This document shows positions 4,943 through 55,857 of a stretch of 64,000 nt of DNA, piece by piece; the stretch's first letter is position 1; every line of letters begins with the position of its first letter. The stretch is from NCBI GenBank assembly GCA_963717245.1, contig CAVQVV010000003.1:25677-89676 (forward strand). Reading direction: 5' to 3'. This DNA comes from an uncultured Actinomycetota bacterium. GTDB taxonomy: Bacteria > Actinomycetota > Actinomycetes > Mycobacteriales > Pseudonocardiaceae. A model generated the notes under the pieces. It saw only the letters and a program-made list of their open reading frames with translations, did not search any database and had not been told where the DNA came from. Position numbers and translations under genes: made by a program.

Positions 4943-5019
4943 CGGGACGTGGCGCAGCTTGGTAGCGCACTTGACTGGGGGTCAAGGGGTCGCAGGTTCG
5001 AATCCTGTCGTCCCGACCA
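4943..5019 (+). tRNA. tRNA-Pro (anticodon GGG), CCA encoded
   Basis: Cloverleaf read by hand: acceptor CGGGACG/CGTCCCG, D arm GCGC-AGCTTGGTA-GCGC, anticodon stem CTTGA/TCAAG with loop CTGGGGG, T arm GCAGG-TTCGAAT-CCTGT, then A-CCA. Confidence 0.9.
4975..5017 (+). repeat. att core copy 1 (inside the intact tRNA-Pro)
   Basis: 43-nt ctgggggtcaaggggtcgcaggttcgaatcctgtcgtcccgac, repeated at 23751, 46736 and 55815. Confidence 0.9.
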
Positions 5020-5050
5020 GGAAGTAGCAGGTCAGAGGGGGTTTCGGAGA

Positions 5051-6270
5051 TCATCCGGAGCCCCTTCTTTGGATCTTCGGGAGCCAAACGGGGAGCCAGC
5101 TGACGTTCAGATTACGCGGAGGTGGCTTGCCACGGGATCTGGTCTGCTTGGTTTTCAGGATCCTGTTCATGGCAGTCGCGCCTTTGGTGAGCGCTGGGCG
5201 GATCTCGTGGCGGTAGACCGTTTCGGTGACGGAGGTACCGCTGTGGCCCATCAGGTCGCTGATGTCCTCGATCCGGACGCCGCCGTTGTTGCTGAGGATG
5301 GACACGAAGCTGTGGCGCAGCTCTCGGGGGGTCCAGTCTTGCCCGAGTCCGGCCGTCTGGGTGATTTCGGCGAACTCGCGGCGGACCTGCCAGCGGTCCA
5401 GTGGGGTGCCGTCCTCGCGGCAGAACACCAAGCCGTGATCATGCCAGGTGTCGGCCGCCTCACGGCGTTGGGCGGCTTGGTGGGTGTGGTGTTGCGCAGC
5501 GCGTGTACGGCCTTGGTCGGGAGCTTCAGCAAGCGCCTGCTCTTGCGGGTCTTGGTGTCGCCTTTGGTCCGCACGGAGCGGTACACGGCCACGTGCCGGC
5601 CTTGAGGTCCACCTCGCCCCAGGTCAGCGCTCGCGCTTCCTCGGTGCGGACACCGGTCAAGAGCGAGAGCACCACGTATGCGGCGAGCCGTGAGCTGGTC
5701 TCCGCCTCCACCGCTTCCAGGAGTCTGGTGGCCTGGTCCAGTGTCATCGCCTTGGACGGGATGTCCCTCCTTGCCGTCGGGAACCATGACCAGGCTCGCG
5801 ACGTTTCGTCTGACCTTGTCGCGTGCCTGAGCCTGGCGGATAGCACGTTCCAGGATTTGATGGATGAGCCGAAGCGTGCGGGTGGACAGCTCTTCGGCTC
5901 GTTCGTCCATCCACTCGTCGAGGTGGTCTGCGGTGAGCTGCTGGAGCTTGGTCGCTCCGATCTGGGGGATCAGGTTGCGCGTGGCCAGCGACCGGTAGTT
6001 GTCGATCGTGGCCTTGGATTTTCCTTTGAGGCCCTTGTCGAGGAAGTCGTTCACGGCGTCTTTCACCGTGTACCTGGCTTCGGCCCGCACGCCTGCTTCC
6101 AGATTATCAACGACTTCGCGGAGCTTGTCCTTGACCTGCGCCTTGGTCTTACCCTTTCGCTTGACGCGCTGGCGCTTGCCCTTTGCGTCGAAGCCAAGGC
6201 TGATGGCGCCGGTGAATCCATCTCCTTCCGGGTAGATGGTTGCTTCGTAGGTACCGATGCTAATCTTCAT
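5051..6270 (-). pseudogene. int: Tyrosine integrase, disrupted by at least two frameshifts
   Basis: N-terminal SAM-like/arm domain in ORF 5251..6270. The middle segment (LLTGVRTEEARALTWGEVDL) lies in frame 5526..5846. The C-terminal catalytic segment (RELRHSF...LMGHSGTSVTETVYRH) lies in ORF 5051..5431. Confidence 0.85.
5079..5098 (+). repeat. Arm-type direct repeats GGAGCCA x2 (left arm of element A)
   Basis: gggagccaaacggggagcca. The same heptamer recurs three times at 23615-23644 in the same orientation. Confidence 0.6.
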
Positions 6271-6452
6271 CCGATAGTCTCCTTTCTTGATATTGGGCCG
6301 TGTTCTTCGTCTTCGTGTCGGTCGAGGTATTCCGCGACAGCCTTCTTGATGACCCAGGAAACACTGCGTTCCTGTTGCTCAGCATATCTGACCAGCCGTT
6401 CCTTGAAATCGGTTTCCACTCGTACCGGTGGAAGGGTGGTGTCGCCTATCAT
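6267..6452 (-). CDS. Ribbon-helix-helix (CopG-like) small DNA-binding protein
   Basis: 61-aa ORF. The pattern PPVRVETDFKERLVRYAEQQERSVSWVIKKAVAEYL fits a beta-strand plus two helices. It overlaps the int start by 4 nt. Confidence 0.6.
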   Translation of the reverse strand: MIGDTTLPPVRVETDFKERLVRYAEQQERSVSWVIKKAVAEYLDRHEDEEHGPISRKETIG

Positions 6453-6485
6453 GTAGAAACATGTATCACGTTGTGCTACATGTTG

Positions 6486-6671
6486 TCAACGGTTCTTCTC
6501 CTGACGCGAGGTTTCGAGTGACGCGACGAACTCCGCCAGGTGCTGGCTGGTGATCCGGCGTAGTTTGCCGATCTTGATACTGCGGAGCTGGCCGGTCCGC
6601 AGCAGGGAGTACACCTTGTCTCGGCCTACGTGAAGGATCTCTGCTACCTGCTCGACTGTGTAGGCTTGCAT
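6486..6671 (-). CDS. xis: Excisionase-type helix-turn-helix protein
   Basis: 61-aa ORF. YTVEQVAEILHVGRDKVYSLLRTGQLRSIKIGKLRRI matches the MerR-like excisionase HTH pattern. It sits next to int. Confidence 0.75.
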   Translation of the reverse strand: MQAYTVEQVAEILHVGRDKVYSLLRTGQLRSIKIGKLRRITSQHLAEFVASLETSRQEKNR

Positions 6672-6839
6672 GTTGCCTCACCTCCTTTCCCTTGGCGCGT
6701 CGTTGCCGGTTGCGGCTTTAGTGGATGTGAGGCTGACGCCTCCTCTCGCTGTCACAGTGGGTGATGGTCCCTCTCTGCGGTCTGTGTCTATGTCTTCGCC
6801 CTTGACGTGCAGACGCGCGGGGACGGTAGACGTAGACAA

Positions 6840-53233: not shown

Positions 53234-53548
53234 TTACGGTTGTTGCCGGTGGTGGACGCCGCTGGCGAATGGGCCGAGCAGCTCGTGGTGGATTTGCCTC
53301 CAGACCACGCACGGCCAGGGTCGGCGGCGCCACAGGCGGCGCCAGGTGAAGCGGCAGTGAGGGCATCGGCCGGTGGGGGTAGGGGGCTGATGGTGTACCA
53401 GGACGAACCGCAGCGCGGCAATAGCGCGGGGGTGGTGACCCGCGCGTTCTAGGTCGATGAGCGTGTCCCATACCGAGCCGACCAACTCACGGGCGCGGGG
53501 TCGGTCGGCCAGCCAGACCACGGTCCGAGTGGACAGTTGCAGCGTCAC
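53234..53548 (-). CDS. Hypothetical small protein with CPHC
   Basis: GTG at 53548 in ORF 53234..53680. Contains GRCPHCRFTW. Weak evidence. Confidence 0.3.
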   Translation of the reverse strand: MTLQLSTRTVVWLADRPRARELVGSVWDTLIDLERAGHHPRAIAALRFVLVHHQPPTPTGRCPHCRFTWRRLWRRRPWPCVVWRQIHHELLGPFASGVHHRQQP

Positions 53549-54119
53549 GGTGAACCACCCCCGGGTCTGCTGGAGACTTCGTCCTGGATGGAGGGCGCAG
53601 AGATGGCCCGGTGTATGAGACACCCTTGTGGGGTGTGTGAGCGCATGGTGGCGCTGGTCTTGGAGGACCCGTCGGATCATGGACTCTAGCCACGAACCTT
53701 GGGTGGGGCCTTGCTGATTCGTGTGGGCTCATGATCGCAAGTTATGCCTCCGTGGGCAAGCGGAGCAGTCGAAGGAAGGACCGTTCGCCGATGATCCCGC
53801 GCGCTGGTCAGAACTGTGATCGCTGCCCACCAGAGGTGATGATGTGCGGTCGGACGCTTGCTGGCCGGGCACTCCGGCGTGCACTGATGGTTAGCTCGCG
53901 ACGGGAGGAATCCCCGAGTCTGCGTTCACCGAGCGGCAGACCCATCCGGATCGGTAGCGCGGGGCCTGGAGTTGTCCGTTATGGTTCCGTCGCTCGTGGT
54001 GTTCATCCGGGTGCCAAGTGGTCGATCCGAGACCGTGGTGGCCGCCGGGCTCAGGAGTTAAGAGATCTAGTCGATACACCGGGCCGAGGCGCCAGGTAGG
54101 GAGTGCGTGAGGTGATCCG

Positions 54120-54917
54120 ATGCCGTTGATGCCCGCTGACGTTGCCAACGTCGCGTTCAGTAAGCCGCCGATGGGTAAGCGGGGCTACTGCGAGGACGAG
54201 GTCGACGCCTTCCTTGACCTACTTGAGGCTGAGCTGGCTCGGTTGATTGAGGACAACCATGATCTCCGTAACCAGGTGGAGCAGCTTGATCAGCAGTTGC
54301 GTGCCGCGCCGGTCGACACCGGGGCCGCCGTTCGTTCGGTGGAGTCGCCTCGGCCGGTGATGGCCCCGGTGCCGCCGCCGATGAGGGAACAAACCTCCCC
54401 AGGAGGTGATCACAACGTCCACGCCGCCAGGGTGCTGGGTCTGGCCCACGAGATGGCGGAGCGGTTGACCGTGGATGTCAAGGCCGAAGCGGACGGGATG
54501 TTAGGTGAGGCTCGCACTAGGTCCGAGCAGTTGCTCTCCGATGCGAGGGTCAAGGCCGATGGCATGGTCAATGAGGCCAAGACCCGGGCGGAGACCCTGC
54601 TCAACGATGCCCGTATCAGAGCCGAGACTCTGGATCGGCAGTCCCGGGACAAGGCTGTGTCGCTGGAGCGCGATGCGGTGCGCAAGCACACCAAAATCCT
54701 CGCTGGGCTGAATCAAGAGAAGGACATCCTGGAGAAGAAGATCGACGAACTGCGCACGTTCGAGCGCGACTACCGCGCCCGTTTGAAGACCTACTTGGAC
54801 TCACAACTGCAAGATTTGGACAGGCGTGGATCCGCCGTACCAATAGACTCGGGACACAACCGGCAGGGCGTGATTGCCTCCGGGTTCGGCGCGCATGCTG
54901 AAGTGGGGTCTCGGTAA
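54120..54917 (+). CDS. DivIVA-domain protein
   Basis: The N-terminus [45 protein letters not shown] is the DivIVA N-terminal domain. Long coiled-coil repeats follow. Confidence 0.85.
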
Positions 54918-55701
54918 CCACGGGCTATCAGACCACTACGGTGCCGAGTTTGCGGACATCGGTGGGGCGAGTGGCAGTGCGACCGCGATGCTTTCGCTCC
55001 TCGCTTTGACTGCGGCTGGGGTGTGAGCCGGCTTGCCATCGGGCAGGAAGGTCTCCTGAGCTGCCCGGTGACGTCGAGAACGATCCGGGGTTATTCACAG
55101 ATCGTCTTCGCGCGCTGGCGCCGGACGGGCCGCGGCCGTGCGGTGGACCCACGAAGATGATGAAGGGTGACAACTTGACCGAGCAGTTCTCACGACGTAC
55201 CCACCCTGACGGTGGTCGGCAGGTCGCGCATCAGGGCCTCTTTCACGTTGCTGGGCAAGAGGCCGGGGAGCGAGATCCGGCGGCCCGATCCATCGCCCCC
55301 AGCGCCGCCGCGCAACCTTCCTGGGACGTGTTCTCGCACGCTTCGGAGTACGACGTTGCGGAGCAACAGCGACCGGCTACTCAACACGACGAGGTGGCCA
55401 TGCGATCATTTCAGCTTCCCTTCGTAGCCGAAGCTGATGTCGGCGACGCCATCGATCAGCGGCGGACGGTGTCCGTCGATGAAGACGACTACCGGTAGGT
55501 TTCAAACAGAACAGCTGTGGGACGCTGCCGATCTGCCACGCCAGCATCTACCCGAGCTTGTCCCCTTACTGAGGATGGACCACGATCTATGGATCAGGTC
55601 TCGGCAGACGGACTCACACTCTCCTTCGACTGGAAACGGTGCAAGGCACCACGCGTAACCTGCGAGACGTGCGATCGGTGAGACCGGCCGGGAAGTGCGC
55701 T

Positions 55702-55720
55702 CTGTGGACCATCTGTGGAC
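55702..55720 (+). repeat. Arm-type repeats TGTGGAC x2 (right arm of element D)
   Basis: tgtggaccatctgtggacc, about 95 nt left of att copy 4. The flank is homologous to 46610-46735. Confidence 0.6.
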
Positions 55721-55814
55721 CAGGACACCAGCCACGTCAGCGCCCACCTGCGACGTGAGCGCTCAAAGACATTGCCGTGTTGGCTGTTGTCGCAGCTCAG
55801 CGCATTACCTCAGT

Positions 55815-55857
55815 TCTGGGGGTCAAGGGGTCGCAGGTTCGAATCCTGTCGTCCCGA
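55815..55857 (+). repeat. att core copy 4 (43/43), outer right boundary of the island array
   Basis: Identical to 4975-5017. Confidence 0.9.

Follow-up and report, generated by a model that had tools for sequence, protein, structure and literature searches.

The window analysed here (the whole stretch of 64,000 nucleotides (nt) from an uncultured Pseudonocardiaceae bacterium, contig CAVQVV010000003.1) contains one tRNA gene according to both ARAGORN and Rfam, an intact tRNA-Pro(GGG) on the + strand at 4943–5019 (Rfam tRNA model, 63.9 bits), which is also supported by a junction alignment with the empty-site contig L004 described below. The genes der, dsbA and GH15-VKOR lie in the left flank, and the right flank carries an O-methyltransferase, an FAD/BBE oxidoreductase and a MEDS-kinase-like gene, in agreement with an earlier reading of the same letters (the original prediction), which had placed ordinary core-type genes, der on the left and oxidoreductases on the right, outside a repeat array. 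Between the anticodon loop of the tRNA gene and position 55815 lie 50,841 bp, which we interpret, with a probability of about 0.88, as a tandem array of integrative elements that all used one 43-nt attachment (att) site, the attB formed by the 3' part of the tRNA gene.

The 43-nt core starts with the anticodon loop and ends one base past the discriminator; it comprises the last 43 nt ahead of the CCA. Four copies are found on the + strand: copy 1, inside the tRNA gene, is the attL of the array (4975–5017); copy 2 (rep2, 23751–23793) matches it at 43/43 positions, copy 3 (rep3, 46736–46778) at 40/43, and copy 4 (rep4, 55816–55858), the attR of the array, at 43/43, the two outer cores being still identical. 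These four 43-mer matches compare with 0.00 expected, none of 100 shuffles having given a match, which bears out the proposal that the tRNA 3' part recurs three more times in the same orientation; the coordinates first assigned are exact except for those of the last copy, placed at 55815–55857, one base off. The two 14–15 nt copies of the 3' end reported at 36973–36987 and 36991–37004 were also recovered, the first being the last 15 nt of the tRNA (15/15, BLAST E 0.003) and the second its 3' end (14/14, E 0.013). Each is marginal singly, and the pair is located 55–86 nt beyond an integrase stop codon. In the alignment, the two short copies are the conserved tail of a decayed full-length core, doubled by an 18-nt tandem duplication of that tail (together 36944–37004, +). 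This fifth core, a relic internal att, keeps ~27/43 positions at 36944–36987, and the homologous internal core in the related contig L022 keeps ~35/43.

The cores delimit four units: element A (5018–23750, 18.7 kb), unit B (23794–36943, 13.2 kb), element C (37005–46735, 9.7 kb) and element D (46779–55815, 9.0 kb), the decayed core lying between B and C. As had been predicted, every interval begins with an integrase gene or its last codons just inside the left repeat. The proposed plot of base composition gave a GC content of 0.60–0.67 in the units versus 0.70 and 0.66 in the flanks, and the tetranucleotide distance to the flanks is raised in all four units.

A precise empty site was found in L004, a contig of the Pseudonocardiaceae metagenome-assembled genome (MAG) GCA_049696695.1, which was reached via the 99%-identical GH15-VKOR protein encoded left of the tRNA. 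Window positions 1–5037 align to L004 at 99.1% identity and positions 55816–62069 at 98.7%, and both alignments overlap exactly at one 43-nt core within a single tRNA-Pro. At the nucleotide level, this core continues with the same GGTCATAAGACCAGGTCAGAG that follows rep4 in the window. Since L004 joins both flanks at one core, an empty site exists, the sequence after rep4 is the native chromosomal flank, and the insertion relative to L004 measures 50,841 bp. The empty tRNA-Pro site that had been suggested as a check in relatives is therefore at hand, and the chromosomal flank is retained after the last repeat, as claimed. The bases immediately 3' of the cores are ggtcgt after rep2 and rep3, ggtcat after rep4 and cagg after the tRNA copy. 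The pattern ggtc(g/a)t after the distal repeats had thus been described correctly, and its reading as native flank holds for rep4; after rep2 and rep3, however, ggtcgt is not chromosomal sequence, and corresponds to the start of the P' arm typical of the element C integrase, IntC, the same sequence being carried beside its tRNA by the intact contig L011.

That the repeats might be chance matches or assembly artefacts, such as duplicated or collapsed contig ends, is a notion to which we give next to no credence. No shuffle reproduced any 43-mer match, the left and right contexts are different at each repeat, the intervals differ in content, and the tRNA–A, core–B-left, internal core–C and core–right-flank junctions were each reproduced in independent assemblies. 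A scan of metagenome contigs for the attB right-flank junction gave no match, and an exact-protein look-up gave no record for the flank genes of the window. Short-read contigs from two other samples (Logan contigs L005 and L007) share the left flank and break off within the tRNA-Pro, at window-equivalent 4962 and 4969; a branch of the assembly graph at an att site that is repeated or polymorphic in those populations would have this effect.

The two forms of the site also differ in the tRNA itself. In the window the CCA is encoded and comes from element A (GAC/CAGG; ARAGORN length 77), likewise in the occupied site of L006, and it is encoded neither in the empty-site tRNA of L004 (window 5017–5019 versus L004 11892) nor in the IntC-type attL of L011, both of which have the CCA-less form (GAC/GGTC, length 75). 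The occupant therefore alters the tRNA 3' trailer.

Three integrase genes are recognisable within the array, IntA (5051–6270, −), IntC (37059–38301, −) and IntD (48512–49258, −), all of them tyrosine recombinases reading toward their left att and all of them defective. Three-frame translation revealed at least three frameshifts in IntA, the catalytic R...HxxR...Y motifs of which remain readable; IntC has one frameshift, at 37417/37418, and can be reconstructed to 413 amino acids (aa); IntD is truncated to integrase codons 1–249, the deletion running to codon 249 (tblastn). In addition, two stubs of 20–30 codons follow rep2 and rep3, the remainder of the gene being broken off at the same nucleotide into the same foreign sequence. 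In unit B, the P' arm and the last ~20 integrase codons occupy 23794–23944, where tblastn detects only integrase residues 386–407, and in D the P' arm and a ~30-codon stub occupy 46779–46941 (tblastn). The statement that nearly all captures were inactivated falls short in this respect, decay being complete with no integrase intact in the array. With all integrases defective, the array would therefore be immobile unless an integrase acts in trans.

Family-specific paired repeats are present ~60–130 nt from the cores, and these are probably integrase arm-type binding sites. In element A the pair consists of CGGGAGCCAA and, one helical turn on, CGGGGAGCCA. It is found 61–81 nt right of the tRNA core as CGGGAGCCAA-a-CGGGGAGCCA (5078–5098, +; candidate site in the P' arm, overlapping the last IntA codons) and 108–129 nt left of rep2 (23622–23643, +; P arm), against 0.01 occurrences expected by chance. 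Since A's pair recurs there, the left flank of rep2 is the second arm of A and marks its right end; L025 and L026 likewise have the pair beside their cores. Alignment with L011 identifies an IntC-type P' arm to the right of rep2 and of rep3, where GGTCGT... is followed by a hairpin with CAGGTCAG and then by the integrase stop. Here the characteristic motif is TGTGGAC, of which 8/8 occurrences on the + strand of the 64 kb lie 102–121 nt from a core, with pairs 11 nt apart on the P' side of rep2, the decayed core and rep3 and on the P side of rep3 and rep4. The candidate P' arm-type repeats of unit B (TGGGGACCACG TGTGGACCATC TGTGGAC; 23892–23920, +) are located inside its integrase stub, and motif scanning placed the paired repeat of the IntC-type P arm, TGTGGACCATCTGTGGAC, at the right ends of C (46622–46639, +) and D (55703–55720, +). 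Allowing up to 3 mismatches, this 18-mer has 7 matches versus 0.05 expected, six of them 97–127 nt from a core on P and P' sides. The integrase stubs would have been retained because they overlap the candidate arm-type sites.

Outside this locus, an IntC-family integrase (P0140, 73% identical) is encoded in Saccharopolyspora erythraea NRRL 2338 (L020; AM420293.1, 1236070–1257272), in an element with NUDIX, SSB, Prim-Pol, methylase and AAA_25 genes that fits the published description of pSE222. This element adjoins a tRNA-Ala(GGC), not a tRNA-Pro; the former is 84% identical over 82 nt to tRNA-Pro(GGG), with the anticodon stem and most of the body shared, and a TGTGGAC pair is found ~100 nt from the tRNA end. 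On sequence comparison, the candidate arm sites are conserved between L020 and IntC and the tRNA target is shifted.

The interior cores thus have a composite structure. Rep2 joins the P arm of A, to its left, to an IntC-type P' arm on its right, and rep3 stands between two arms of the IntC type, the P arm of C and the P' arm of D. Such an arrangement is what successive integrations would leave behind. Tyrosine-recombinase integration would regenerate the tRNA and leave a displaced copy of the core, later arrivals would recombine with one of the existing cores, and interior sites would thus become chimeric, consisting of the left unit's P arm, the core and the right unit's P' arm. Unit B would be the stump of an IntC-type element, of which only the core, the P' arm and the final ~20 codons of the integrase gene are left; the decayed internal att would mark its fusion to a second element of that type, one with a TrwC relaxase. 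The empty site and the chimeric cores support the mechanism that had been proposed, serial site-specific integration at one tRNA with a core displaced each time. Where strands were exchanged, in which order the elements arrived and whether any mobility is left are matters of inference; neither core mismatches nor the decay gradient resolved the order.

Relatives provide independent views of the same site. L025 carries an intact A-type element at the same dsbA–der–tRNA-Pro locus; L011 and L012 carry an IntC-like integrase (85%) with DUF3987/Prim-Pol beside tRNA-Pro and dsbA–der; and in L019 the tRNA-Pro is followed directly by the left segment of a B-type unit (B-left) and then by an intact 320-aa gene. 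Single-occupant relatives are hence known for A-type (L025), B-type (L019) and IntC-type (L011/L012) units. In L006 the same tRNA is occupied by an actinomycete integrative and conjugative element (AICE) with an int–xis–RepSA–FtsK organisation. Units also occur in other combinations: L016–L018 tile a locus with a different unit ahead of the core and B-left (L018 reads Y–core–B), and L022 has the order X–core–B–core*–C. At least three distinct integrase families (IntA-type, IntC-type and RepSA-AICE type) compete for one 43-nt core. An invariant order in relatives with no empty site would have spoken against accretion; relatives differ, L004 is empty, and several junctions are reproduced in independent assemblies.

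Contigs L022 and L023 are the most informative for the right part of the array. Read in the orientation of the window, they display, in this order, a neighbouring element, a core, B-left, a repeat module, a 5' unit of the 320-aa gene, a diverged second core and a C-type element with an intact 413-aa integrase (95% identical to IntC) and an intact 1404-aa TrwC. The C-type element of L022 is 86.6% identical to window 36993–44242 (7.3 kb). By this alignment, B–C is a composite that also exists pre-assembled in other metagenomes. Outside the window, an element of the TrwC type of C was seen in two settings only, the B–C composite and a site other than tRNA-Pro, where it accompanies an IntC-like integrase.

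These observations bear on how many captures the array records. The original prediction spoke of four or more serial captures at one tRNA; accretion as such stands, and the count is overstated, three arrivals or one en-bloc event being sufficient. Three arrivals suffice because B–C exists pre-assembled elsewhere and D is another such composite. It is also a serious possibility, at somewhat less than even odds, that the array, or most of it, did not grow by serial captures in this lineage at all, but was acquired pre-assembled, or was ancestral and lost in the L004 lineage. Gain en bloc could have been site-specific, by excision and integration at the outermost att sites, or homologous, the conserved flanks recombining once chromosomal DNA had been transferred by conjugation, and loss could have proceeded by precise recombination between the two identical outer cores. 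The pre-assembled B–C composite of other metagenomes and the 43/43 identity of the outer cores are in line with such an event, as is the heavy decay of the units next to flanks that are only ~1% from the empty-site relative. The paralogous parts of the array are 77–92% identical, with 82–92% for the parts shared by B and D and by C and D (self-BLAST); compared with 99% identity of the flanks to the empty-site genome, this indicates that the units diverged before becoming neighbours. Moreover, joint excision of tandem AICEs (PMC3218068) and transfer of whole composites (PMC5704250) are documented. Against this, A, B-type and IntC-type units are each found alone at this tRNA elsewhere, so that independent arrivals are clearly possible, and no other contig with the A–B–C–D order was found.

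The same divergence makes it improbable that the segments the units have in common, namely B-left with D-left, IntC with IntD and the P arm of C with that of D, were copied within the array by duplication or by unequal crossing-over between its att copies. In favour of such copying, these segments are direct repeats that are bounded by cores, and internal recombination of tandem arrays is known (PMC3218068). However, the paralogous segments reach only 77–92% identity versus 99% between the flanks and the array-less genome, the D cargo (sugar transferase, Prim-Pol, DivIVA) has no counterpart in B–C, and B-left of L019 is nearer to window B (92.5%) than window D is (82–84%).

The integrase stubs raised a further question, since the truncation junction TTCGA/GGGCTAC is the same at rep2, rep3, L008, L017 and L019, five contexts in all; L016–L019 were retrieved by scanning for this junction, and a scan of viral contigs gave no match to it. 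In contig L008, a complete IntC-like gene is separated from a displaced copy of the P' arm with the last 20 codons by 7.4 kb of cargo that includes a second integrase, of 333 aa. This arrangement, like the identity of the junction in five contexts, might suggest that the stubs mark an element inserting into the 3' ends of IntC-type integrase genes and bringing a replacement 3' end. This explanation is more improbable still. In L022 the B-type unit and the element with the integrase are still separated by a diverged core, as accretion followed by att decay predicts and nested insertion does not; furthermore, the window lacks a homologue of the 333-aa integrase, and the two copies of the ~110–130-nt duplicated segment have no long identical core in common. 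A nested element targeting the integrase 3' end was hence given up in view of the residual core of L022.

Returning to accretion, the stubs allow a more tentative proposal, which we consider possible and rather doubtful: that B-type units form a conserved family of integrase-less hitchhikers, with a minimal functional attL, riding with IntC-type elements as a swappable cargo platform. The minimal attL would comprise the core, the P' arm and the candidate arm-type repeats overlapping the last ~20 integrase codons. The proposal derives from the recurrence of one truncation junction in at least five contexts with cargo differing each time, namely ApeA-like in L022, HSP70-like, Peptidase_U49 and a second integrase in L008, and an aminotransferase with an EgtD-like gene in the window. 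B-type units co-occur with IntC-type elements in L008 and L022, the only support for mobilisation of B in cis. If the hitchhiker proposal is true, selection keeps the integrase stub as DNA-binding-site sequence and not as coding sequence.

Several points weigh against the tandem-array interpretation or limit its detail. Excision products, circular junctions and integrase activity are not observable from sequence alone. The sole near-identical relative, L004, is a metagenome-assembled contig and shows an empty-site haplotype, not the ancestral state. The frameshifts could in principle include assembly errors; their density speaks against this, with three in one 1.2-kb gene and only about one in coding sequence over 11 kb of flank. 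Since window and L004 flanks differ at only three small indel sites outside the att junction in ~11 kb, the frameshifts of the island are not general sequencing noise. Unit B is internally rearranged: GTGTAGCA modules recur in it and 5' units of the 320-aa gene are duplicated, which leaves the number of original units in B uncertain. Finally, element A has no recognisable replication initiator, so that labelling it a full AICE is not secure.

Element A is AICE-like by its Pfam content and by its collinearity with L025 and L026. Its left 8.2 kb form a conserved body and its right half is full of insertion sequence (IS) fragments. Window 4906–13217 is collinear with the intact A-type elements of L025 and L026 at 91.9–92.7% identity (91.9% for L025, over window 4906–12945), the A-type element of L026 being found behind another island. 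The reconstructed IntA matches many uninterrupted 385-aa proteins at 90–91% identity and the L006 integrase, in two frames, at 24–31%. It is followed by an excisionase gene (6489–6671, −; TIGR01764, E 2.3e-12), at the position of which L025 and L026 have an HTH_17 gene, and by a gene for an FtsK/SpoIIIE-type DNA translocase, a TraB-like conjugation protein (6843–8732, −; PF01580, E 3.7e-13, 49.9 bits versus a cut-off of 24), homologous to the FtsK gene of L006 and to the 609-aa genes of L025 and L026. Two XRE-type regulators on the + strand come after this int–xis–FtsK series on the − strand. Element A therefore shows the tyrosine integrase (as a pseudogene) and excisionase at a tRNA 3' end and the translocase that characterise AICEs. 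No RepSA homologue was detected in the window by tblastn, and no Rep/Prim-Pol match by Pfam among the A open reading frames (ORFs) scanned, several small ones being without assignment; with an integrase only 24–31% identical to that of the RepSA-type element of L006, A is not a member of the pSAM2 family proper. The right half holds IS66 fragments (15172–16366), an IS1380-family copy (19787–21499) and IS110 fragments (21939–23285), all assigned by Pfam. A near-perfect 29-bp inverted repeat (14453–14525; 97% complementary, 15-nt loop) just past a 164-aa ORF could be a terminator, an origin or an IS end.

Unit B was delimited by tblastn, Pfam and alignment with L019, and is integrase-less and similar to a cis-mobilisable element (CIME). 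Pfam and tblastn found no integrase, relaxase or FtsK gene in it beyond the last-codon stub. For both B and D-left, an att is kept and integration and transfer genes are lost, as in a CIME, the right-hand att of B being decayed. B-left extends to 24980 and is 92.5% identical to L019 (window 23748–24713). It is followed by a low-GC insert (~25.0–30.3 kb; GC 0.47–0.56 versus ~0.66–0.70), which appears to have been inserted into the 320-aa gene of a B-type unit; pieces of this gene, comprising its first 45 and last 34 codons, are scattered at 27341–27475, 30071–30166, 24612–24713 and 47056–47154. Three tRNA-like fragments (27527–27575, 30219–30267 and 34923–34971) correspond to the upstream region and first 45 codons of the 320-aa gene of L019; as att sites of another tRNA they were discarded, ARAGORN and Rfam finding nothing even at E up to 5. 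The cargo consists of a class I/II aminotransferase (30544–31755; E 3.5e-63) and an EgtD-like histidine-specific SAM methyltransferase (31923–32972; PF10017, E 5.9e-86), a pair (30544–32972) that may be a fragment of a small betaine or thiol-histidine-type pathway. An IS1380 copy follows (33220–34912; Pfam). The two IS1380-family (DDE_Tnp_1_4) copies of A and B are only 74% identical and therefore reflect independent IS invasions, not recent transposition. In L017, a related IS is inserted in B-left at the position equivalent to 24620.

The low-GC segment contains orphan ORFs of 447 aa (25196–26539), 188 aa (27718–28284) and 343 aa, the last with a C-terminal helix-turn-helix (HTH; 28861–29892). 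The first two had no match in Pfam, NCBIfam, PADLOC or PHROGs, and the third had just weak, sub-threshold HTH-domain matches in the same collections; a defence or phage role for the orphan ORFs, here and elsewhere in the array, was set aside for want of a significant match in these four. A ~135-nt module is present four times (28238–28372, 35626–35695, 36779–36912 and 48150–48286) and also, flipped, in L022 (7534–7671). Its copies hold direct-repeat pairs of GTGTAGCA 11 nt apart (28245/28256, 35634/35645 and 48156/48167) and a single one at 36786, ~118 nt left of a degenerate tRNA-Pro-like stretch (36904–36947). A further recombinase or regulator could use these pairs as arm-type or operator sites.

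Element C, delimited by the L022 alignment and Pfam, carries an integrase and a MOBF relaxase and resembles an integrative and mobilisable element (IME). The IntC family is very large and actinobacterial, with intact relatives of 399–413 aa and up to 96% identity (95–96% in metagenomes, 85% in other Pseudonocardiaceae MAGs and 73% in S. erythraea). Among known plasmids no close relative was found, the best near-full match being 53% identical, on a Streptomyces megaplasmid. The TrwC-type relaxase/helicase pseudogene (39409–43625, −; PF08751, E 1.2e-45; AAA_30, E 3.7e-42) has one frameshift at 41283 relative to L022, and the 1404-aa TrwC ORF of L022 and a 1473-aa ORF of L014 each match it in two frames. 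Between integrase and relaxase lies a 205-aa gene (38679–39296, +), 94% identical to a 175-aa protein of L022; the overlapping 371-aa ORF (38298–39413, −) was rejected as an element gene and is probably spurious. A GntR-family regulator (~44128–44865) and an XRE/TPR regulator (45072–46304) complete the element (Pfam). No FtsK or type IV secretion system gene was matched by Pfam within 37005–46735. With int and trwC both frameshifted, C is, on its gene content, most readily classified as a decayed IME with a MOBF relaxase.

Element D, as judged from self-BLAST, tblastn and Pfam, is a second, more decayed composite of the B–C type. Behind its stub it has B-left-like sequence (46916–47431; self-BLAST), a STAS gene (47702–48172; Pfam) and the repeat module (48150–48286; self-BLAST), followed by IntD, and its P arm is 77.5% identical to that of C (self-BLAST). 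An IS (49543–50433) and genes for a sugar transferase (50894–51550), a Prim-Pol (52302–52955) and a DivIVA-domain protein (54120–54917) occupy the remainder (Pfam).

Defence-like cargo occurs in related arrays at this core: HSP70-like, Peptidase_U49 and the second, 333-aa integrase genes in L008 (3027–7899), ApeA_NTD1 in L022/L023 (L022 9885–10985), and DUF4062-TPR/NB-ARC and ApeA-HEPN genes in L026 (13302–20360). To the right of the array, the O-methyltransferase gene (56515–57541, −) has a 2-nt deletion at 57308 relative to L004, which leaves a 299-aa ORF and a separate 84-aa N-terminal ORF where L004 has an intact 342-aa protein with a dimerisation domain; judging from this alignment, a pseudogene may lie in the first cluster of chromosomal genes beyond the right end of the array.

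The closest published parallels are tandem AICEs. In Streptomyces avermitilis, AICESav3728 and AICESav3708 lie in tandem at a tRNA-Arg with a 44-bp att between them (te Poele et al., PMC2440964). In Frankia EAN1pec, Fean5518 and Fean5534 are found at a tRNA-Lys and Fean6303 has three repeats (PMC2440964, PMC3218068), and tandem Frankia AICEs excise singly and jointly (Ghinet et al., PMC3218068). As in these systems, the host of the present array is actinobacterial, tyrosine integrases act at a tRNA 3' end, a short att is shared by neighbours, and integrases of different subfamilies can use one site. In contrast, five att sites and three to four units, instead of two, are present in the window, its integrases are all dead, and one unit is relaxase-based, not FtsK-based; excision of the Frankia tandems was shown experimentally, while the array of the window is known from sequence. 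As such arrays are documented, the depth of the accretion record, which had been called unusual, is a matter of degree.

Another actinobacterial counterpart is the 153-kb island SCO6806–SCO6953 of S. coelicolor, which has a 43-bp direct repeat in a tRNA-Pro 3' end and a pSE222-like integrase alongside (PMC2440964). The tRNA type and the repeat length are the same as here, and that island was read as an AICE insertion followed by multiple further insertions, a history like the one proposed for the window. It is described with two bounding repeats and without an internal series, the comparison being made by description. IntC itself appears related to the pSE222-like family, being 73% identical to the integrase of the S. 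erythraea element whose content fits pSE222. With pSAM2, the AICE of Streptomyces ambofaciens in a tRNA-Pro gene, the window shares the tRNA-Pro target, int–xis genes reading toward the att and, in A, an FtsK-type gene, and the relative L006 carries a RepSA-type element at this same tRNA. Unlike pSAM2, however, the window has no RepSA homologue and no FtsK-type gene in C and D, and the low identity of IntA to the RepSA-type integrase of L006 sets it apart.

The decay of the units is best compared with the model of Guedon et al. (PMC5704250), in which integration is followed by decay to an integrase-less CIME and by accretion, whole composites possibly being transferred. In that review, which summarises Pavlovic 2004 and Bellanger 2011 on ICESt1/ICESt3 (integrative and conjugative elements) and CIMEs of Streptococcus thermophilus, an element decays to an integrase-less unit that keeps its att, a new element integrates at the retained att, composites can move as one, and genes are captured via loss of an internal att. 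B and D-left fit the CIME definition by their sequence. According to the same review, the ICESt1/ICESt3 host is a Firmicute and the target is the 3' end of a protein-coding gene, not a tRNA, and cis-mobilisation was shown experimentally for the S. thermophilus CIMEs, whereas for the window it is deduced. The array displays an integrase-less stump fusing to an intact element with decay of the internal att, the proposed route of cargo capture. For annotation, its 51 kb, including several 'genes', are best treated as decayed mobile DNA. Altogether, it is already well documented that elements accrete in tandem at tRNA genes and decay to integrase-less units, and the window, which calls for no new mechanism, fits this model in every testable respect as a clean, well-delimited and unusually well-resolved case of accretion at a tRNA hotspot in an uncultured Pseudonocardiaceae.

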